Assembly: GCA_963819655.1 (NCBI GenBank)
Contig: CAWFXA010000002.1
Location: 1,472,001-1,536,000 of the forward strand
Length of the DNA stretch: 64,000 bases
Direction: 5' to 3'
DNA from: an uncultured Chloroflexia bacterium
GTDB lineage: Bacteria; Chloroflexota; Limnocylindria; Limnocylindrales; CSP1-4
Shown: positions 7,617 through 62,620 of the stretch, piece after piece
How positions within the stretch are numbered: the stretch's first letter is position 1
Layout: each line of letters opens with the position of its first letter
Made by a program: the position numbers and the translations under genes
Notes under the pieces: generated by a model
Databases searched by the model: none
Told to the model about the DNA's origin: nothing
What the model saw: only the letters and a program-made list of their open reading frames with translations

Positions 7617-8288
7617 TCAGATGAAGATCAGGCTCGATCCGCCAGGGTATCGGCCGGCAGCGAGTGCAGCCAGGGCCTTGCGAGCCGAGATCGGGAACAT
7701 CCCTGCCAGCACGTGCCAGGCAGCCGCGACAGCCCGTCGATTGGTTGGCGTATCGGCGACCACAAGCAGTACATGCTCGACCTCGGCGTCACGCATCTTG
7801 AGCGTGAGTCGCCGCATCTGTGCCTGCGCATCGCCGATGCGGGTCTCGACCTCGACCGGCATGGTGCGAGGTCGGTCGAATTCATTGACGAGATCCGCAA
7901 GCCACGCGTCCCACGCTCGCCGATCGCCGATCATCGGCAGGGGCACCTCGAGCCGAATCGAGACGCTGGCGTGCACCCGGGGGCGCAGTCGTTCGATGAC
8001 CCGGACCTGTCCGGCGTCACGGAGGGCGTCGGCGCCCGGATACGTCCGGACCCGAACGTCCAAACCCACCACGGCCCCGATCCGTGCGAGCTGCACGATG
8101 CTCGCGGTTGCCACAAGACCACGTTCGATTCGGCTGATCTGGGCTCCAGAGATACCCGCGGCAGCGGCTACGACCCGGATCGATAGTCCCCCATCGACTC
8201 GAGCTTGACGAAGGTCGGAGCCCACGCGGTTCACGTCGGCCCGGGCCGTGCGGCTACCACGATCGGCTGGTCGGTCGCGCGTCGGCAT
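7617..8288 (-). CDS. XRE-family HTH protein with C-terminal PD-(D/E)XK-like domain
   Basis: HTH (LRQAR..GLS...VA..AGIS..QISRIERG), then LEVP..WD..VEVET..K; alignable by eye with 56755-57531. Confidence 0.75.
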   Translation of the reverse strand: MPTRDRPADRGSRTARADVNRVGSDLRQARVDGGLSIRVVAAAAGISGAQISRIERGLVATASIVQLARIGAVVGLDVRVRTYPGADALRDAGQVRVIERLRPRVHASVSIRLEVPLPMIGDRRAWDAWLADLVNEFDRPRTMPVEVETRIGDAQAQMRRLTLKMRDAEVEHVLLVVADTPTNRRAVAAAWHVLAGMFPISARKALAALAAGRYPGGSSLIFI

Positions 8289-53144: not shown

Positions 53145-54167
53145 ATGGCGACCAACACACCCACCCGGGTGAAGAAGCTCTTCAACGCGATCGAGGACAT
53201 CGTCCCTGAGAGCCTCCGTGGCCTCGAGGCGGCGCATCCCGACCTGGTCAAGGTGGACCTGAGCCAGAACCTCGTCCTCCGCGCCGGAGGGCCGAAGCAA
53301 GGCAAGGTCGCCCTGATCTCGGGCGGTGGGTCCGGTCACGAACCGATGCATGGCGGCTTCGTCGGCCTGGGCATGCTGGACGCGGCCGCAGCCGGCAATG
53401 TCTTCACGTCGCCCGTGCCGGACCAGATGGAGGCTGCGACCCGCGCCGTCGACGGCGGCGCTGGCGTGCTGCACATCGTCAAGAACTACACCGGCGACGT
53501 CCTGAACTTCCAGCTCGCGGCCGAGCTCGTCGGCGGCGACATCGAGGTGGCGACCGTCGTCACCAACGATGACGTCGCCGTCCAGGACTCGCTGTACACG
53601 GCCGGACGCCGTGGCGTCGGGGTCACGGTCCTCCTCGAGAAGATCGCCGGCGCCCATGCCGAGGCCGGCGGGTCGCTCGCCGACGTGGCGGCGACGGCCA
53701 CCAAGGTCAACGACCAGGGCAAGTCGATGGGTCTCGCGCTGACATCGTGCGTCGTCCCCGCCGCGGGCACGCCGACGTTCGACCTGCCCGACGACGAGGT
53801 CGAGGTCGGTATCGGCATCCACGGCGAGCCGGGCCGCCGCCGCGAGAAGCTGGCGCCCGTCGATGACATGGCCGAGTGGCTGGTCGCGCCGATCGTCTCC
53901 GATCTTGGACTCAGCCGCGGCGATACGGTGCTTGCATTCGTCAACGGCATGGGCGGCACGCCGCTCATCGAGCTCTACGTGGCGTTCAACAGCGTCGCGA
54001 AGATCCTCGGCGGGCAGGGCATCTCGATCGGGCGCTCGCTCGTCGGGAACTACATCACCAGCCTCGAGATGGCCGGGTTCTCGGTGACCCTGCTGCGGCT
54101 CGACGATGAGCTCACCCGATGGTGGGATGCCCCGGTGCACACACCGGCCCTACGCTGGAAGGTCTGA
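53145..54167 (+). CDS. dhaK: Dihydroxyacetone kinase substrate-binding subunit
   Basis: [43 protein letters not shown]. Confidence 0.96.
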
Positions 54168-54185
54168 CAGACCCGCTCGACGCGA

Positions 54186-54224
54186 GCGGCCGCCGCACCG
54201 TCCTCCCTCAGGTGCGGCGGCCGC
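54186..54224 (+). terminator. 14-bp GC stem-loop between dhaK and dhaL
   Basis: GCGGCCGCCGCACC-N11-GGTGCGGCGGCCGC; no U-tract; a TAGACT -10-like hexamer follows at 54265. Confidence 0.45.
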
Positions 54225-54303
54225 CGCCAAACCCGCATACCTTTCACGCGTTCGCGCCGCCTTCTAGACTCGGGCGCGACCGCCGCCGTCAAGGGATCCA
54301 TCC

Positions 54304-54954
54304 ATGATCGACGTCATCGATGCCTGGCTCCGCCTGGCCGCCACTCGCCTGCACGATCAGGCAGCGATCCTGACCAAGCTCGATCAGGCCATCGGCGATG
54401 GGGACCACGGCACCAACATGGACCGCGGGTTTAGCGCGATCGTCACGATGCTCGACAGCGAACCGCCTGCGGGCGACGGCCAACTGGCCGTCGGCGGCGC
54501 ACGTCTGCGGACTGCCGGGCGGACGCTGATCAGCACCGTCGGCGGCGCCGCCGGACCGCTCTATGGCACCGCGTTCATGCGCGCCGGCGGGGCCATCGCC
54601 GCCTTGCCCGAAAAAACGCCCGGCAGCGTGGCCCTGGTCGCCGGTCTCGATGCGGCGATCGGCGGGGTCCAGTCGCTCGGCAAGGGCGTGGCCGGCGAGA
54701 AGACCATGCTCGATGCATTGCTGCCCGCCCTCGCTGCCGGACGCGAGGCGTCCGACGCGGGCGACGACCCAGGCGCCCTGGTCCATTCCATGGCGGATGC
54801 CGCCGAAGCCGGGGCGGCCGCCACGATCCCGATGCTCGCCACCAAGGGTCGCGCGTCCTACCTGGGCGAGCGTTCGATCGGGCATCAGGACCCGGGAGCC
54901 ACCTCTGCCGCGCTCCTGTTGCGGGCGTTGGCCGATGTCGCCGGGGGCGAGTGA
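54304..54954 (+). CDS. dhaL: Dihydroxyacetone kinase ADP-binding subunit
   Basis: LDQAIGDGDHGTNM.RGF, GPLYG, GEKTMLDAL, canonical ATKGRASYLGERS.GHQDPGA. Confidence 0.95.
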   Translation: MIDVIDAWLRLAATRLHDQAAILTKLDQAIGDGDHGTNMDRGFSAIVTMLDSEPPAGDGQLAVGGARLRTAGRTLISTVGGAAGPLYGTAFMRAGGAIAALPEKTPGSVALVAGLDAAIGGVQSLGKGVAGEKTMLDALLPALAAGREASDAGDDPGALVHSMADAAEAGAAATIPMLATKGRASYLGERSIGHQDPGATSAALLLRALADVAGGE

Positions 54955-54958
54955 TCCG

Positions 54959-56758
54959 ATGGAGCGAACGGTGGCGCGGACCGTGGCCCGAGCCCGAGCC
55001 CGAGCCGCGACCGGGGCCTGGACGCCTGGCCCGGTGCTCGTCGGTCGGCCCGGTGCGCCGGGTGTCGGGGTCGGGCGTGCCCTGGTCGTCGAGCCGCCTG
55101 GTGGCGGGGGCTCAGGCGCGGCCGGGGTGGGCGCGAGCCCGATCGGCGCGGACGCCGTGGGCGTGCCCGCCGTGGGCGTGCCCGCCGATCCCGCAGCGGA
55201 GGCCGACCGACTCCGGGCGGCGCTCGAGAGGGCCGCCACAGAGCTGACGGACCTCGCCGATGAGACGACGACGCGTGCCGGTGAGGACGTCGGGGCGATC
55301 TTCGTGGCGCAAGCCCTGTTCGCGCGTGATCCGGGAATCGTGGATCCGACGCTCGACGAGATCTCGGCCGGCATCCCGGCCGCGGACGCGATCATCAGCG
55401 TGACGGCCCGGCATGCCGACAGCCTGGCCGGTGTCGACGACGACTACTTTCGGGAGCGCGCCGCCGACGTGCGCGACATCGGCCGACGGGTCGCCGCGCT
55501 CCTTCGCGGTGAACGACGTCCGGACCTGTGGCACGCGGACGGTCATCCGGCAGTGCTGATCGCCGCCGACCTCGATCCATCGGTGGTCGCGTCCCTGCGT
55601 CGAGAGCTTGTCGCAGGCATCGCGACGGCGGGTGGGACATCGACCGGCCATGCGGCGATCGTCGCGCGTGCACTCGGCATCCCGCTCGTCCTCGGGCTCG
55701 GCGAAGGGATCTCGGCCGTGTCGAATGGCATCGAAGTGGCGGTCGAAGGATCGACCGGCCGACTTCTCGTTGATCCCGGGCCGGAAACCCTGGCAGCGCT
55801 CCGATCGGCTGCGACCTCAGCGCCGGTGGCCGGCGCAGACCGCGCGTCCACGCACGGCGTGGCGGTCATGGCCAACGTCTCGTCGCCCCTCGAGGCGGCG
55901 GCCGCCGGCCAGGCCGAGGCAGACGGCATCGGACTCGTCCGGACAGAGCTCCTGTTCCTGGGTCGACACACGCCCCCGACCGTCGATGAACAGCGAGCGA
56001 CCTACGCGCACATCCGAGCCAAGTTCGGCGATCGGCCGATCGTGTTCCGAACGCTTGACGTCGGTGGCGACAAGCCGGCGTCGTGGCAGCACGGGCCTGC
56101 CGAGACGAATCCCGCCCTGGGAGTGCGAGGCGTCCGACTCGGTCAGCGTCAGCCCGACCTGCTCGACGATCAGCTCCGCGCGCTCGTCGAGGCGGCGAGC
56201 GAGGACGAGCTGCGGGTCATGGTCCCGATGGTCGCGACTCGCGAGGAGCTCGACGATGTGAGATCGCGGCTCGACGCGGTCGTCACAACCGTTTCCGCCT
56301 CGACCGGCGTCCGTCCGCGGGCGATACGGCTCGGGGTCATGATCGAGGTGCCTGCCGCGGCGGTCATGGCTGACGTGTTCGCGGAAGCGGCGGACTTTCT
56401 GTCGATCGGGACCAACGACCTTGTCCAGTACGTGCTCGCGGCCGACCGGACAAATCCCGACCTCGGTGATCTCGCTTCACCCCTGCAACCGGCGATCTTG
56501 CGGCTGATCGACAGCGTGGTCCAGGCGGCGCGCCTCCACGGACGACACGTCGCCGTCTGCGGGGAGGCGGCTGGGGATCCCGCGGTCGTGCCGCTGCTCC
56601 TTGGGCTGGGCGTGGAGGAGCTGAGCGTTACCCCTGCGGCGATCGCATCTGTTCGCAGCACGCTTGCCGGGCTAGACCCATCCGTTTGCGAGGCCCTCGC
56701 CAAGCGTGCCCTGAGCGCCCGGTCGCTGGCCGAGGTGCGGGCGCTGCTCGAGGGCTAG
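54959..56758 (+). CDS. ptsI: PEP-protein phosphotransferase (PTS enzyme I)
   Basis: ERAADVRD, GHAAIVARALGIP, GIGLVRTE, RTLDVGGDK, MIEVPAA, SIGTNDL.QY, VCGE. Confidence 0.93.
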   Translation: MERTVARTVARARARAATGAWTPGPVLVGRPGAPGVGVGRALVVEPPGGGGSGAAGVGASPIGADAVGVPAVGVPADPAAEADRLRAALERAATELTDLADETTTRAGEDVGAIFVAQALFARDPGIVDPTLDEISAGIPAADAIISVTARHADSLAGVDDDYFRERAADVRDIGRRVAALLRGERRPDLWHADGHPAVLIAADLDPSVVASLRRELVAGIATAGGTSTGHAAIVARALGIPLVLGLGEGISAVSNGIEVAVEGSTGRLLVDPGPETLAALRSAATSAPVAGADRASTHGVAVMANVSSPLEAAAAGQAEADGIGLVRTELLFLGRHTPPTVDEQRATYAHIRAKFGDRPIVFRTLDVGGDKPASWQHGPAETNPALGVRGVRLGQRQPDLLDDQLRALVEAASEDELRVMVPMVATREELDDVRSRLDAVVTTVSASTGVRPRAIRLGVMIEVPAAAVMADVFAEAADFLSIGTNDLVQYVLAADRTNPDLGDLASPLQPAILRLIDSVVQAARLHGRHVAVCGEAAGDPAVVPLLLGLGVEELSVTPAAIASVRSTLAGLDPSVCEALAKRALSARSLAEVRALLEG

Positions 56759-57531
56759 CGTCCGACCGTTACGCCCCGTGGCGGTCGATCGAGGATCGTG
56801 GCGAGGTCGCCGCGGACATCGGCCCAAAGGATTCCGTCGCCGGGCCAGGGCCGATCAGCCTCGGTGATCGCCCGGAAGACGGCGCGGGCGGGTGCCGGAT
56901 AGGCGGCAGCGAGGGTCGCACCAAACCTCGTTGCGATCTCGCGGTTCGAACGGGTCGAGCGGACGACCAGCAGGCGATCGATGCTCGGCGTATCGCCCAT
57001 CCGATCCCAGAACGGCGCTGACGGGAGCGCGAGCGCCTTTTCGTTCGCCCATCGGATGAGCTGTTCGAGCCGTCGCAGCTCCGACTGGATCTCGGTGCAG
57101 ATCGCGACCGTCGGGGGTCGATCGAGCAGCACCAGATCGATGAATCCGCGGGCCGGTCGAACGACGGGAACTTCGAGCATTCGATCCCAGCGTGGGTTCA
57201 GGATGCGTAGCAATGCTTCCCCGATCCGCGCCTGGATCGGATCTCGAAGGCGCGGGCCGGCGCCCGGAAACAGGCGAATGCTGGCGTCAGCTCCGAGCGC
57301 GGTCGCGATTGCCGTCAGTGCAGTGATGCTTGGCTCTCGCAGGCCGCGCTCGATCAGTGAAAGGAAGCCGTGGTCGATACCCGCTGCGACCGACAACTCG
57401 CGCTGTGTGGCGCCCGAGTCTTCGCGCATCTGTCGGATGTCCGCACCGATCCGGATGCGGAGGTCCCTTGCCCGCCGGCCCACAAGCGTCTGCGATGTGC
57501 GGCGCGGTCGAACGATCCGTGGCGTCGACAT
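56755..57531 (-). CDS. XRE-family HTH protein with C-terminal PD-(D/E)XK-like domain
   Basis: HTH (TQRELS.AAGI....LS.IERG..EPS), then LRD..Q, LEVP..GFIDLVL..TEIQS..K, LLVV..T..NR; homologous to 7617-8288. Confidence 0.78.
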   Translation of the reverse strand: MSTPRIVRPRRTSQTLVGRRARDLRIRIGADIRQMREDSGATQRELSVAAGIDHGFLSLIERGLREPSITALTAIATALGADASIRLFPGAGPRLRDPIQARIGEALLRILNPRWDRMLEVPVVRPARGFIDLVLLDRPPTVAICTEIQSELRRLEQLIRWANEKALALPSAPFWDRMGDTPSIDRLLVVRSTRSNREIATRFGATLAAAYPAPARAVFRAITEADRPWPGDGILWADVRGDLATILDRPPRGVTVGR

Positions 57532-57620
57532 GAGCCTGATTTGATCAGGTGGCGCTCAACGGCGGCTTATCTGACGCGACGAATAGCGCCACGCGGGCTT
57601 GCGGCTGCTGACATTCGGCT

Positions 57621-57938
57621 GCTGACCGTCGGTCAACGTTTCCGGCGTGGAGCGGGTCTTTACGGTGCGAGGTCGCATGTTTGTTGACCGTCAGACACCA
57701 TCGAGCCAGCGACCACCTGCTGTGCTGACCGTCGGTCAACGCGTGAGCGGGGTGAGGCGAGTCGGGCGTCGGGTGCGCACCCACGCGCCGCAAAACGTTG
57801 ACCGTCGGTCAGCAGGGCCGGGAGTAGAGGGCGCTCCTCAGGCCAGACGACGCCAAATCGTTGACCGTCGGTCAGCAGGGTCGGGGCGTAGCACGCGATC
57901 TCGGGGCTGGACGACTCAACCGTTGACCGTCGGTCAAC
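57621..57938. repeat. Array of six 17-bp palindromes GYTGACCGTCGGTCARC with unique spacers
   Basis: Copies at 57621, 57683 (degenerate), 57724, 57797, 57860 and 57922; start-to-start distances 62, 41, 73, 63, 62. Confidence 0.9.
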
Positions 57939-58037
57939 AGCGCGGCGCAAATGGACTGGTGGCCCTGCGTGCGGCCCCGCCACCGCGGTACCGAACGGAT
58001 GGTCTAAATAGGGCTCACGGCCTATACTCGCTTGTCC

Positions 58038-61000
58038 GTGGCAAGCTCCGTCGTCGCCGATCCGCTCGCACCCTTCTCGCCCGCCGTTCGGGCCTGGTTC
58101 GAAGCGAGCTTCGAGGCCCCGACCGAAGCCCAGTCCCGCGGCTGGGCGGCAATCGCCCGCGGCGACCACACCCTGATCCACGCCCCGACCGGCAGCGGCA
58201 AGACCCTCGCCGCCTTCCTGTACGCGCTGGACCGCCTCGCCCGCGACCCGAGCCCGCCGGCAACACGAGAGAACCCGGGCCACGTCCGGGTCCTCTACAT
58301 CTCCCCGTTGAAGGCCCTGACATACGACGTGGAACGCAACCTGAGGGCGCCACTCACCGGCATCGGCCTTGCCGCGCAAAAGCTCGGCGACGAGCCGCCG
58401 CGGATCACCGTTGCGAGCCGGACCGGCGACACCCCCAGTGAGGACCGTCGCGAGATCGCCCGCCGACCGCCCGACATCCTCATCACCACCCCCGAGAGCC
58501 TGTACCTGCTGCTCACGAGCCAGGCACGCGAGATCCTGCGCAACGTCGAACACGTGATCGTCGACGAGGTCCACGCGATCGCCGGCACGAAACGCGGCGC
58601 GCACCTCGCGCTGACCCTGGAACGTCTGGAGCACCTGCGCGACCCGGACCGGACGAAGCCGCCCCAGCGCATCGGCTTGTCAGCCACCCAACGGCCGCTC
58701 GACACGATCGCGCGCTTCCTGGGCGGCATCGGCCCGGACCGAGACGTCTCGATCGTGGACGCCGGCTCGCGGAAGCCGCTCGAGCTCGAGGTCGTCGTCC
58801 CGGTCGACGATATGGCGGCCATCGGCGAGGTGCTCCCGCAGGAGCAGCAGCCCGGTGGCCCGGCGATCAGCCCGGACTTGCGGACGAGCATCTGGCCGTC
58901 GATCCACCCGCGGATCCTCGAACTGATCCGCAGCCACAAGAGCACGATCGTCTTCACGAACAGCCGCCGCCTCAGCGAGCGCCTCGCGCAACGCCTCAAC
59001 GAGCTGGCCGGCGAGGATCTGGTCCGCGCCCACCACGGGAGCATCGCCCGCGAACAGCGCCTCGAGATCGAGGAGGAGCTCAAGGCCGGTCGACTCCCGG
59101 CGTTGGTCGCCACCAGCAGCCTCGAGCTCGGCATCGACATGGGCGCGGTGGACCTCGTCATCCAGGTCGAGAGCCCGACGTCGGTCGCCCGTGGGCTGCA
59201 GCGCGTCGGCCGTGCGGGCCACCAGGTCGGGGCCCCGAGCAAGGGCGTGATCTTCCCGAAGTACCGCGGCGACCTCCTCGAAGTCGCGGTCGTCACCCGG
59301 CGGATGCACGAGGGCCAGATCGAGCAGACCAGGATCCCGCGCAACCCGCTCGATGTCCTCGCCCAACAGATCGTGGCGATGACGGTGATGGACACGTGGA
59401 CCGGCGACGACCTGTTCCGGACAGTGACCAAAGCCTCTCCGTACGAGACCCTCACGCGCGACGTCATGGACGGCGTCCTCGGCATGCTCGCCGGCGCCTA
59501 CCCGTCCGACGAGTTCGCCGAGCTCAAGCCGCGCGTCGTATGGGACCGCGTCACCGACACGATCGAGGGTCGTCGCGACGCGCGCGTCGTTGCGGTGACG
59601 AGCGGCGGCACCATCCCGGACCGCGGCCTGTTCGGCGTCTTCATGGAGGGCGAGGCGGGGACCCCGGGCCGGCGCGTCGGCGAGCTCGACGAGGAGATGG
59701 TCTACGAGCTCCGAGCCGGGATGCACGGCGACGTCATCATCCTCGGGGCGAGCTCGTGGCGGGTCCTGGACATCGGGCACGATCGTGTCACGGTCTCGCC
59801 CGCACCCGGCGTCCCGGGCAAGCTGCCGTTCTGGAAGGGCGACGCCGTCGGTCGCCCGATCGAGCTCGGCCGCGCGCTCGGCGCGTTCATCGGGGAGCTC
59901 GAGGGCGATCTGCACCGTGGACCCAAGGGACGGGAGGCCGCCGCCCAGCGGCTCAAGGACCACCACGACCTCGACGACCGCGCCGCCGAGAACCTGCTCT
60001 CGTATCTCGAGGACGAGCGCGACGCGACCGGCGCCCTGCCGACCGACAAGCGCATCGTGGTCGAGCGGTTCCGCGACGAGCTCGGCGACTGGCGTCTGAC
60101 GCTCCTGTCGCCGTTCGGTGGCGCGGGTCCACGCGCCGTGGTCGCTCGCGATCGAGGCGCGGCTGCGCGACCGCCTCGGCATCGAGGTCCAGACGATCTG
60201 GTCGGACGACGGGATCGCGATCCGGCTGCCCGAAGGGGAGGGGAGCCTCGACGGCATCGAGGAGCTGCTCTTCCCGGCGTCCGAGGACGTCGAGGACCTG
60301 GTCGTCGGCCAGGTCGCCAACTCGGCGCTGTTCGCGAGCAGATTCCGCGAGAACGCCGCGCGGGCCCTGCTTCTGCCGCGCCGTCGGCCTGGGACACGGA
60401 CGCCGCTGTGGCAGCAGCGCCAGCGTGCGGCGGACCTGCTCGCGGTCGCGAGTCGCTACGGCAGCTTCCCGATCCTCGTCGAGACGTACCGCGAATGCCT
60501 GTCCGACGTTTTCGACCTCGACGCGCTGCGCGACATCCTTGGCGGCGTCGCCAGTCGCGAGATCGCGATCCATGGCGTCGAAACGCCGAAGGCCAGCCCG
60601 TTCGCGAGCAGCCTTCTGTTCGACTACGTGGCCGCGTACATGTACGAGGGCGACGCGCCGCTCGCCGAGCGCCGCGCCGGTGCGCTCACGCTCGATCGCG
60701 ACCTGCTGCGCGAGCTGCTCGGCCAGGAGGAGCTGCGCGAGCTGCTCGATCCGGAGGCGCTGGCCGACCTCGAGCTGTCGCTCCAGGCACTGACCGACGA
60801 TCGGCAGGCAACGACTGTCGACCAGGTCCACGACCTCCTTCGCCGGCTGGGCGATCTCTCGACGGATGAGGTGGCTGCGCGCGTCGCGGGCGGTGCGACG
60901 GCCGCCGCGTCCTGGCTCGACGAGCTGGCCGGCGCTCGCAGGGCGGTCAAAGTCCGGATCGCCCGCGACGAGCGCTGGATCGCGATCGAGGACGTCGCCC

Positions 61001-62620
61001 GGTACCGGGATGGCGTCGGTGTGACCGCCCCGGTCGGCGTGCCCGAGGCGTTCCTGGCACCGGCGGTCGCCGCCCTCGACGGCCTGCTTGCCCGCTTCGC
61101 GCGGACCCACGGGCCGTTCCTGACGCCCGAGCCGGCAGCCCGGTGGGGCCTGCCACTCGGCATCGTCGAGGACGCCCTCGAGCGGCTGCTCGCCGCCGGC
61201 ACGATCCTGCGCGGCGAGTTCCGGCCGGGCGGCGCGGAGCGCGAATGGTGCGATCCGGACGTCCTCCGGCTCCTGCGCCGACGCTCGCTGGCGCGTCTGC
61301 GACGAGAAGTGGAGCCGGTCGACCCAGCCGCGCTCGCACGGTTCCTGCCGGCGTGGCATGGGATCGCGCCGGTCGCGGGTCCCGGTGCGGAGCCGTCGCC
61401 CTTCCGCGGTTCGGCCGCCCTGGAGCGGCTGGCCGAGGTCGTCGACCAGCTCGCCGGCGTCGCCATCCCCGCGTCCGTGCTCGAGCGAGACGTGCTCCCG
61501 GCGCGCGTCCCGGGCTACACCGCCCGCCTGCTCGACGAGCTCGGCGCGATGGGCGAGGTGGCATGGGTCGGACGTGGGAGCCTCGGCCGAGACGACGGCC
61601 GCATCGCGCTCTACCGGCCCGGCCGCGACGCCCTGCGTCCGCCCGGCACCCTCGACGCGCAACGACGATCCGACCGCCCGACCCAGCGGCGAGCGCCACG
61701 AGCGGATCAGGCAACACCTTGCCGCGCGCGGTGCCAGCTTCTATCGAGCCATCCACGCCGCGGCCGGCGGCGGCTCGGACCGGGAGATGCTCGACGCGCT
61801 GTGGGACCTGGTCTGGGCGGGCGAGGTCACGAACGACACGTTCGCGCCGCTCCGAGCGCTGCGTTGGAAGCGACCATCCGGATCCGGACCGGGCGCCCGG
61901 CGCGGCCGGCCGGGACGGCTGACCGCTCTTGGCCCGCCAGAGGCAGCGGGCCGCTGGTCGCTGGTCGAACCGGTCGAGGACGTCGCACCGACGGAGCGCC
62001 TCCACGCACAGGCCCTCGCCCTGCTGGAGCGGCACGGGGTGCTGACGCGCGAGGCGGTCGCTGCGGAAGGCGTCGACGGCGGTTTTGCCGGGGTCTACCC
62101 GATCCTTCGGGCGCTCGAGGAGGGAGGCCGGATCAGGCGCGGCTATTTCGTCGATGGGTTGGGCGCCGCGCAGTTCGCGCTGGCCGGCGCTCTGGATCGA
62201 CTGCGCGCCGTGCGCGATGGCGACGAGGGATCGTCCGCACCGACCGTCCACGTTCTGGCCGCGGCCGATCCCGCCAACCCGTACGGGGCGGCTCTGCCAT
62301 GGCCGCGCCGCGGCGACGAGGATCGGCGCCCGTTCCAGCGCGCGGCGGGCGCGTATGTCGTCCTCGTCGACGGGATCGCGGCCCTCTACCTGGAACGCGG
62401 CGCCTCGACGATCCAGACGCTTCCGGCCGCCGACGATCCGGACGTCGCCCTGTCCGCGCTCCGTGGCCTGACTTCCCTGGTCCGCGGCGGACGGATCCGC
62501 GAGCTGGTCATCCGCAAGGTCGACGGCGCAGCCATCGGCGAGTCGCCATGGCGACCGGCCCTGCTTGAAGCCGGCTTCGCCGCCGGCTACCGCGGGCTCA
62601 CCCTGCGCGAGCCGCGCTGA
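58038..62620 (+). CDS. lhr: Lhr ATP-dependent helicase, long form (frameshifts near 60125 and 61655)
   Basis: APTGSGKT, ITTPESL, DEVH, SAT, HHGS, TSSLELGID, QRVGRAGH, PLWQQRQRA, RRGYFVDGLGAAQFA, DPANPYG. Confidence 0.93.

Follow-up and report, generated by a model that had tools for sequence, protein, structure and literature searches.

The textbook example of a dispersed palindrome family served by one gene is formed by the repetitive extragenic palindromes (REP) and the REP-associated tyrosine transposase (RAYT), a system built on a HUH transposase of single-stranded DNA. In the plasmid centromere arrays (ParR–parC, SopB–sopC) and in phased multi-operator regions, short sites of fixed helical phase are bound cooperatively by the small DNA-binding protein of the adjacent gene; the mycobacterial interspersed repetitive units (MIRU) are alike over their full length; and the C-boxes of the controller (C) proteins of restriction–modification (R–M) systems form a close pair. 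According to the accessible part of PMC3850674, a natural fusion of a C protein with a restriction endonuclease (C::REase), CR.NsoJS138I, both regulates and cuts. In the accessible part of PMC3424549, XisH (PF08814) is filed in the PD-(D/E)XK superfamily, and the families COG1395, COG5482, and Replic_Relax, in which a helix-turn-helix (HTH) domain is fused with a PD-(D/E)XK domain, are predicted regulators. We compared with these systems an array of palindromes lying beside the gene for an HTH and nuclease-like protein in a 64,000-nucleotide stretch of DNA from an uncultured Chloroflexia bacterium (the window; assembly GCA_963819655.1, contig CAWFXA010000002.1, positions 1,472,001 to 1,536,000).

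We put at roughly 60% the probability that the palindromes of the window are cooperative operator arrays of the adjacent protein which also behave like a dispersed family of the REP/RAYT type. The preliminary description of the window, made from its letters only, had read them as phased sites of the adjacent protein or as a REP-like family kept by it, and this reading is supported overall by the phasing of the sites, their covariation with the protein, and their dispersal. The coupling of gene and repeat appears to resemble that of REP and RAYT, whereas the type of protein and the predicted duplex, phased sites differ. In the open-access full-text literature, a search found neither arrays of this kind nor the protein family described.

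The source genome holding the window (G000; the other G numbers denote further genomes of its genus) is assembled in three contigs of 3.49 Mb with a G+C content of 69% and a completeness of 91%. A 500-bp gap (57532–58031) separates two divergent genes of the open reading frame (ORF) list: the HTH gene on the minus strand (56755..57531, stop codon included; 258 aa; Pfam HTH_31/HTH_3) and, on the plus strand, lhr (58032..62620), which codes for a large DNA-repair helicase. A pattern search of the window found GYTGACCGTCGGTCARC exactly at positions 57621, 57724, 57797, 57860, and 57922. With up to two mismatches, 10 matches were counted on both strands; shuffled sequences are expected to give 0.14, and none of 100 shuffles reached 10.

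Six copies of the palindrome had been announced, and five of them are indeed perfect, but the second one is degenerate. Copy 1 (GCTGACCGTCGGTCAAC, 57621..57637) bears the extended flank ACGTTT on its right, toward the array centre, as copy 3 (57724..57740) also does with its right flank. Copy 2 (57683..57699) has the core TGACCGTCAGACA with two core mismatches. Copies 4 (57797..57813; flank AAACGT), 5 (57860..57876), and 6 (57922..57938; fully symmetric, GTTGACCGTCGGTCAAC) are flanked on the left, which for copy 4 is again the side of the array centre. The flank comparison thus bore out the opposed orientation of copies 1/3 and 4/5 that had been described: the right flanks of copies 1 and 3 read ACGTTT/ACGCGT and the left flanks of copies 4–6 read AAACGT/AATCGT/AACCGT, with the central T on the plus strand in all six copies. 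Measured between cores, the spacings are 62, 41, 73, 63, and 62 bp, the same values as had been reported. The spacers occur once in the genome, as claimed. The array sits near the centre of the gap, with 92 bp between the HTH gene start and the first core and 94 bp between the last 17-mer and lhr. In the orthologous arrays the cores and their immediate flanks are well conserved, the spacers less so, and the copy number varies at the lhr end; copy 6 is an additional unit relative to the arrays of G092 and G121. The decayed state of copy 2 is itself conserved in the alignment with G092, G021, and G121.

A genome-wide count of the 13-mer core showed that the palindrome is not confined to the window. 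At up to one mismatch, TGACCGNCGGTCA had 72 matches in G000, namely 43 single ones and seven clusters (A1–A7; A3 is the array of the window). They lie at C1:523465 (A1, four copies, spacings 62, 62, 62), C2:446168 to 446357 (A2, four copies, 73, 41, 63), C2:1529623 (A3, six copies), C3:223268 (A4, five copies, 42, 62, 73, 51), C3:630745 (A5, four copies, 62, 63, 62), C3:822863 (A6, eight copies, 61, 51, then 52 five times), and C3:928492 (A7, five copies, 63, 62, 62, 62). All seven are intergenic, in divergent (A2, A3), tandem (A1, A4, A5), or convergent (A6, A7) gaps, and their neighbours are unrelated to one another (TPP enzyme, GGDEF-EAL, MFS, ArsR, AAA_5, ABC ATPase, PfkB, gatB, methyltransferase, YbjQ). 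Units at different loci have in common only the core and about six flanking bases. The spacers are unique in G000 except for identical neighbours, which are the five 52-bp units of A6 and two 62-bp units of A7, and a comparison of the spacers of the arrays with each other within G000 revealed none that was shared or copied.

The conserved sequence of a unit is not symmetric and reads AAACGT-TGACC-N3-GGTCA, with a weaker GCG/GCAG behind it. In each of the seven arrays the copies of the left part bear the extended flank on the right and those of the right part on the left, so that the extended half-sites point to the array centre and the polarity flips inside every array. As the central base stays on one strand within an array, neither arm is an inverted copy of the other. 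For the congener G008, the sequence of the family is AATCGG-TGACC-NNN-GGTCA-CCGATT, with a symmetric change of the flanking base and a variable centre. When reversed, A2 gives the series 63, 41, 73 with a decayed second core, like copies 1–4 of the window (57621–57813), and a faint similarity of A2 and A3 is seen beside the decayed core; the two could go back to the copying of an entire array long ago. The HTH protein has about 12 weaker paralogs in G000 (26–38% identity), one of which (35% identity) lies in the same window at 7626–8255 on the minus strand with no repeated palindrome seen upstream. None of these paralogs adjoins the other arrays or has repeated private palindromes, and they were therefore rejected as partners of the other arrays.

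The 29 spacings in G000 all belong to one of four classes that are separated by steps of one helical turn (41–42, 51–52, 61–63, and 73 bp), and the best-fitting helical period is 10.35 bp. The phasing was scored as the mean of cos(2*pi*d/10.35), and each set was compared with 5000 draws of uniform spacings; it should be noted that the spacings are drawn from related genomes and are not independent. The score was 0.945 for G000 (n = 24, tandem-identical units counted once), 0.955 for the TGAC-class arrays upstream of orthologs elsewhere (n = 18), and 0.824 for the arrays of the other palindrome classes introduced below (n = 22, spacings of 49–177 bp), and in none of the three sets did any of the 5000 draws reach the observed value. 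The last set appears the most telling because it has different sequences and distances. Among the spacings at 16 loci of G008 and G001, 62 bp occurred 45 times, 63 bp 13 times, 61 bp 6 times, 51/52 bp 5 times, and 73/74 bp twice, together with a few odd values resulting from overlapping degenerate matches. The helical phasing suspected in the preliminary description is thus not a product of chance as judged by the uniform draws, and it holds over loci and palindrome classes. The centromere arrays differ in that they are single plasmid loci of near-identical units, and here seven chromosomal loci have unique spacers and housekeeping neighbours.

Homologs of the HTH protein (E ≤ 1e-20) were present in 65 of the 121 genomes of the genus. 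The gene lhr lies divergently upstream of the homolog at 22 of the 29 loci of relatives, three contigs being too short to judge; in G066 it lies on the opposite side, and in G001, G008, and G135 the TGAC-class gene is away from lhr with the array still adjoining. A TGACC-N3-GGTCA array was found 60–400 bp upstream of the homolog in eight genomes, whose proteins are 87% (G092), 85% (G021), 84% (G121), 72% (G006, array cores decayed), 66% (G126), 61% (G001, five palindromes, all 62 bp apart), 58% (G008, on a 1.6-kb contig), and 57% (G135) identical to that of the window. In G083 a decayed array phased 62/62/62/61 lies upstream of the homolog. The array beside the gene was kept throughout, unlike the dispersed arrays.

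The more distant homologs lack the TGACC core and have other palindromes instead, in 2–5 copies each. All of these share a register, g-w-T-N-N-C-N5-G-N-N-A-w-c (core T-N-N-C-N5-G-N-N-A), and at least two 17-mers fitting it lie between the HTH gene and lhr at 21 of 30 loci (G000 counted). The half-site changes along with the recognition helix of the protein. Residues 58–59 are Ser-Leu in nine of nine proteins of the TGAC class (G000, G092, G021, G006, G126, G001, G008, G135, G083), Ser-Gln in eight of eight of the TGGC class (G117, G020, G133, G130, G090, G078, G120, G122), Ser-Arg in both of the TGCC class (G080, G051), and Ser/Cys-Gly in both of the TCAC class (G109, G046); the TCGC (G098, G087) and TTGC (G106) classes have Ser-Gln after Val-Ser (3/3), where the others have Ile/Val-Asp. 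As the classes are clades, these counts speak for a consistent covariation and do not count independent events. The covarying positions are residue 59 and residues 52–55. The loci of G094, G124, G066, and G123 have no clear operator, and that of G060 has a single TTGACC-AG-GGTCAA. A private upstream palindrome that co-varies with the recognition helix had been proposed as a check of the reading, and the positional orthologs do have their own.

Close relatives can carry different classes, as would a swapping cassette beside lhr. In G021, the HTH protein is 85% and the Lhr N-terminus 92.6% identical to those of the window. The same values for Lhr (92.6%) and a PtsI C-terminus of 85.6% were found in G106, yet its HTH protein is only 53–54% identical and its operators are of the TTGC class; in G122, Lhr is 90.9% and the HTH protein 51% identical, with TGGC operators. 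In a region of G021 (C5:121968-132044), two family members lie 9 kb apart: the first is of the TGAC class and adjoins lhr, and a GATTGC...GCAATC palindrome is found 229 bp upstream of the second.

The dispersed copies follow the class of the gene as well. Phased TGACC pairs occur in 11 of the 121 genomes, with 85 in G008, 23 in G001, 8 each in G000 and G135, 7 in G122, 4 in G059, and 1–2 in five others; the remaining genomes have none, and the control with the reversed pattern gave none anywhere. In an independent test, GATGCC-N5-GGCATC was counted in the 121 genomes; 15 copies were present in G051 and 7 in G080, which are exactly the two genomes of the TGCC class, and at most three in each of the other 119. 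The gene of G051 has sites on both sides: the four upstream ones are 71, 72, and 73 bp apart and the four downstream ones 82, 73, and 71 bp apart. Further grouped TGCC sites lie on its contigs C100, C101, C102, and C35. The arrays of G008, a short-read assembly, are found at many contig ends (L047, L050, L051, L054–L056, L061), indicating that the family breaks assemblies and that its true copy number is under-counted in drafts.

Compared with REP/RAYT, the likeness therefore lies in short intergenic palindromes dispersed over the genome, here as seven arrays; in a single-copy gene beside its cognate repeats; in a repeat class that changes with the protein class; and in a copy number very unequal among relatives, most of which have no copies. 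A REP/RAYT-like coupling with a different enzyme, as suggested earlier, agrees with the TGCC counts. RAYT itself was rejected because a search of the genome (91% complete) for its family PF01797 (Y1_Tnp) found no member; the protein here combines an XRE-type HTH with a predicted PD-(D/E)XK-like fold and is not a HUH/Y1 transposase, and Pfam finds only HTH families in it. The sites differ as well: what is conserved are two half-sites of 4–5 bp around a free centre, as is typical of duplex DNA bound by a dimer and not of a single-strand hairpin, and the copies are grouped in helically phased arrays whose spacers are unique and whose two arms have opposite polarity. The invariant half-sites, the free centre, and the phasing together argue that the duplex rather than a hairpin would be recognised.

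The adjacent protein is most likely the reader of the palindromes, since these are of the dimer type with a free centre, are spaced on one face of the helix, and have half-sites that track the recognition helix. Its XRE-type HTH, noted already in the preliminary description, spans residues 28–84 (57280..57450, minus strand; Pfam HTH_31, E 6.1e-11). In the model the helices are residues 43–50 and 54–61, the latter (HGFLSLIE) being the recognition helix. The nearest solved folds are R–M controller proteins, SinR, DdrO, and ClgR; the structural match to C.AhdI has a Z of 12.1 and a root mean square deviation (rmsd) of 1.1 over 66 aligned residues, the sequence match to ClgR has an E of 5e-11, and PADLOC reports its Control_protein model at E 5.2e-9.

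The remainder of the protein, residues 95–258 (56758..57249, minus strand), was assigned as a PD-(D/E)XK-like domain from the full-length model and the invariant columns. Its 165 residues had no family match in Pfam, NCBIfam, PADLOC, or PHROGs and no PDB sequence match beyond the HTH, and the ESM Atlas offered only unnamed Chloroflexota clusters for it. The full-length model (pLDDT 78, pTM 0.64) has an alpha-beta-beta-beta-alpha-beta core (H98–110, E115–123, E129–137, E142–149, H155–171, E183–191), and E105, E120, D132, E147-x-Q149, R154, E156, Q157, R160, W161, and K165 are invariant in 28 sequences. In a comparison with about 48,000 PDB representatives, the C-terminal domain of this model matched best XisH (2okf_B; Z 9.1, rmsd 3.3, 119 aligned) and the nuclease domain of NucS (2vld_B; Z 8.7, 104 aligned). 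The earlier suggestion of a nuclease-like C-terminus is thus moderately supported by the model topology, these matches, and the invariant E105, E120, D132, and E147-x-Q149. The families COG1395, COG5482, and Replic_Relax share with this protein the joining of an HTH to a nuclease-fold domain, and XisH is its structural neighbour; the differences are that the C-terminal domain has no sequence-level Pfam or NCBIfam match and that dispersed cognate arrays are not among the features described for these families in the accessible part of PMC3424549. A profile of the C-terminal domain hit 4 of 201 sampled Chloroflexota genomes; the hits fall in this genus, in a second genus of the family, and, as a single weak match, in the class. 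Metagenome proteins include at least 800 homologs, of which those with a named source bear no label other than XRE-family regulator or HTH protein.

The product of the HTH gene in the database record, like many database homologs, starts at Met35 (codon at window 57429) and has 224 aa. The 34 Arg-rich residues preceding Met35 are kept at the protein level in 28 aligned orthologs, and owing to this conservation the 258-aa form is probably the real one.

The dispersed arrays are gained and lost. A6 is present in none of the 120 other genomes, and short empty sites occur in more than 20 relatives. In more than 15 genomes both of its flanks are separated by just 6–57 bp; among these are G092 and G121, where the site measures 14 bp as compared with 451 bp in G000 and the flanks are 91–94% identical. 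Judging from its five identical units, A6 was gained recently. A1 is lacking in the closest relative, G092, where a gap of 12 bp lies between flanks of 96% identity, and also in G021, G106, and G135. A2 is found in G092 with a 62/42/72 pattern and is absent in G021 and G106; A4 is found in G092 and G021 and is absent in G006 (5-bp gap) and G135 (genes overlap), with 90 bp at this place in G001; and A5 is present in G092. A7 is absent in G092, G021, G006, G001, and G135. Empty sites in relatives, which the preliminary description had proposed to look for, thus exist for the dispersed arrays A6, A1, A4, and A7.

The sequence of events that we propose begins with a dimer of the XRE-type HTH, which would read the two TGAC(C) half-sites of each 13–17-bp palindrome. 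As the centres lie 4, 5, 6, or 7 turns apart at 10.35 bp per turn, every dimer would dock on the same side of the helix and could be in contact with the next, presumably by way of the C-terminal domain; the spacing suggests cooperation between neighbouring dimers. The assembly of several dimers would occupy the common control region of the HTH gene and lhr, and this position of the array points to autoregulation and possibly to control of lhr. Protein and site would be a fast-diversifying pair, the positional orthologs using TGGC, TGCC, TTGC, TCGC, and TCAC. In some lineages the cognate arrays would enter new intergenic places as inserts of about 300–450 bp, followed by tandem duplication. The weakest step is the last one, in which the nuclease-like centre would make the DNA breaks that seed or move arrays. 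Because of the invariant acidic residues of this domain, the protein itself would be the first suspect for inserting, amplifying, and removing arrays. The most far-reaching version, in which an active PD-(D/E)XK centre nicks or cuts the protein's own palindromes and so seeds, amplifies, and excises arrays, with the cassette exchanged between strains beside lhr, seems to us possible but doubtful.

Several observations weigh against this reading. The binding of the palindromes is deduced from comparative genomics, in which, as said, classes and clades coincide. The TTGC palindrome is not dispersed: G106 has two perfect copies, and no genome has more. G122, G059, G050, and G009 bear TGACC arrays, and two queries found no TGAC-class gene in them. 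The cognate gene may simply be unassembled, as these drafts are 60–87% complete (G122 87%, G059 65%, G050 60%, G009 77%) and the gene of G008 sits on a contig of just 1.6 kb. A simple scan of 57450–58100 for the sigma-70 consensus gave zero matches. With regard to spreading, no donor copy was found, the spacers matching nothing else in the genome, and the A6 junction showed no target-site duplication, the alignments of A1 and A7 being too ambiguous to judge. A homologous A7 lies at the orthologous site of G122 (71% identity over three units, flanks about 79%), and the reading of A7 as a clean recent gain was rejected for this reason; its presence in this distant genome and not in closer relatives would need the array to have been lost precisely more than once, gained more than once at this place, or transferred. 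As to the nuclease-like domain, Q149 stands where the PD-(D/E)XK motif has K; some solved PD-(D/E)XK enzymes have Q at this position. Modelled alone, the domain reached a Z of at most 5.2, lost strand 3, and had a pLDDT of 55–69 there, and Foldseek on the isolated domain returned none at E ≤ 0.001, yet its match list is mostly of the PD-(D/E)XK superfamily (SfsA, XisH, YaeQ, NucS, AF1548, PaqCI, SdaI, BstEII, Hjc, Can2, Card1). The nuclease-like fold is for these reasons likely but not settled, with moderate support.

The same sites might instead be those of an ordinary transcription factor with a multi-site regulon, whose other arrays arose by duplication, recombination, or horizontal exchange; its nuclease-like domain would only oligomerise or sense a ligand or DNA damage and would have no role in the spreading of sites. 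We regard this as unlikely. In its favour, the palindromes lie between a divergent pair that is kept at most loci, the HTH is nearest to autoregulating controller proteins, ClgR, and DdrO, the TTGC class has operators at its own gene only, and the HTH–PD-(D/E)XK fusions COG1395, COG5482, and Replic_Relax are predicted regulators, at least in the accessible part of PMC3424549. What it explains poorly are A6 and A7, which lie between convergent gene ends where a promoter is not expected, the whole multi-unit inserts in gaps of 6–21 bp with no pre-existing site, the functionally unrelated neighbours of the arrays, and the expected catalytic acidic residues, which are invariant in 28 of 28 sequences. 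It is the enrichment limited to a class, the inserts in tiny or convergent gaps, the tandem growth, and the invariably kept array beside the gene that lead us beyond an ordinary operator set to cooperative operator arrays which also disperse.

We consider it quite improbable that the palindromes are generic intergenic repeats of the REP/BIME (bacterial interspersed mosaic element) or MIRU type which adjoin the gene fortuitously and are bound or propagated by another factor. A member of the protein family is lacking near six of the seven arrays, and the four drafts with arrays and no detected cognate gene would also fit; so would the intergenic 52- and 62-bp tandem units, whose copy number varies between strains as in a MIRU or minisatellite. 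Fortuitous adjacency, however, would hardly have been kept over protein identities of 57–87%, even away from lhr in G001, G008, and G135, nor would the orthologs of other classes have other palindromes of equal register and phasing, nor would the TGCC palindrome be enriched only in the two TGCC-class genomes of 121. The MIRU differ further in that the units here are alike between loci only in the palindrome and about six flanking bases.

It is very unlikely that the gene is the remnant or orphan of an R–M system, i.e., a controller::restriction-endonuclease fusion with the palindromes as C-boxes and the swapping of the cassette as R–M mobility. The likeness to R–M C proteins consists in an XRE HTH of equal structural type (C.AhdI, Control_protein) and palindromic operators upstream of the own gene, and that to the C::REase fusions in an N-terminal regulator joined to a fold of the restriction-endonuclease type; the cassette also differs sharply between close relatives, as in G106, and a dually active natural fusion exists in CR.NsoJS138I (accessible part of PMC3850674). 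However, no methyltransferase gene adjoins, the neighbours being ptsI and lhr (unlinked methyltransferases were not searched), and instead of a close C-box pair there are 2–6 palindromes 41–177 bp apart, the operators extending over 300 bp at integral helical turns. The cognate sites are dispersed in the host chromosome, where more than 20 unprotected ones would be lethal with an active type II enzyme cutting its own HTH site, the position beside lhr is conserved, and the family is chromosomal and of narrow distribution (4 of the 201 Chloroflexota genomes sampled).

A CRISPR-like or otherwise processed RNA array, in which repeats and unique spacers are cut into small RNAs, would fit the period of about 62 bp, the unique spacers, and the palindromic repeat core, but it is scarcely credible, as it was already held less likely in the preliminary description: the repeat polarity flips inside all seven arrays, the four spacer-length classes one helical turn apart are a property of double-stranded DNA, some arrays are plain identical tandem units, Cas1 was not found in G000 (by which, with the polarity flips, a CRISPR array was rejected), a search of 57400–58100 against Rfam gave zero matches at E ≤ 1, and the spacers had zero blastn matches among 50,697 phage and 72,556 plasmid records.

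Around the array, a block between it and lhr (ACCGAACGGATGGTCTAAA ... CCTATACT, 57990..58029, plus strand) is conserved in the alignment of G092, G021, and G121 and is a candidate for the lhr promoter region. A single-copy palindrome, CCTGATTTGATCAGG, lies at 57535–57549, 4–18 bp 5' of the start codon that gives the longer HTH product, and is conserved only partly in the same three genomes. The lhr region is split into three overlapping ORFs (58032–60869, 60118–62568, and 61358–62620), which implies two frameshifts; tblastn matches to lhr were likewise split in several relatives whose assemblies consist of few, long contigs. A pseudogene and indel errors from long-read assembly are equally likely causes. 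At its 3' end, the HTH gene overlaps the convergent ptsI ORF by 4 bp. The unit to which the latter belongs (53145–56758) comprises dhaK-like and dhaL-like genes and a long ORF ending in ptsI; in this 731-aa ORF the first ~200 residues, a DhaM-like region, appear to be out of frame or fused. As for expression, none of the 24 sequencing runs listed was an RNA data set containing the organism, all shares being at most 0.16.

The REP/RAYT system couples its gene to its repeats through a HUH transposase of single-stranded DNA, and here the coupling would be made with an unrelated type of protein and with duplex sites at integral helical turns. If this is true, it would represent a second, independent route to repeat families maintained by the host. 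The at least five half-site classes with their changes in the recognition helix would form a natural specificity series for reading the XRE recognition code, and the filled and empty sites between genomes that are 92–96% identical would give a handle on the birth of transcription-factor site arrays at new loci. A fast-swapping cassette beside lhr is thereby flagged in soil Chloroflexota. In the far-reaching version with an active nuclease centre, if true, the chromosome of each strain would carry a private address pattern readable by its protein, for which chromosome organisation, strain incompatibility, or the recruitment of Lhr-dependent repair may be possible uses.

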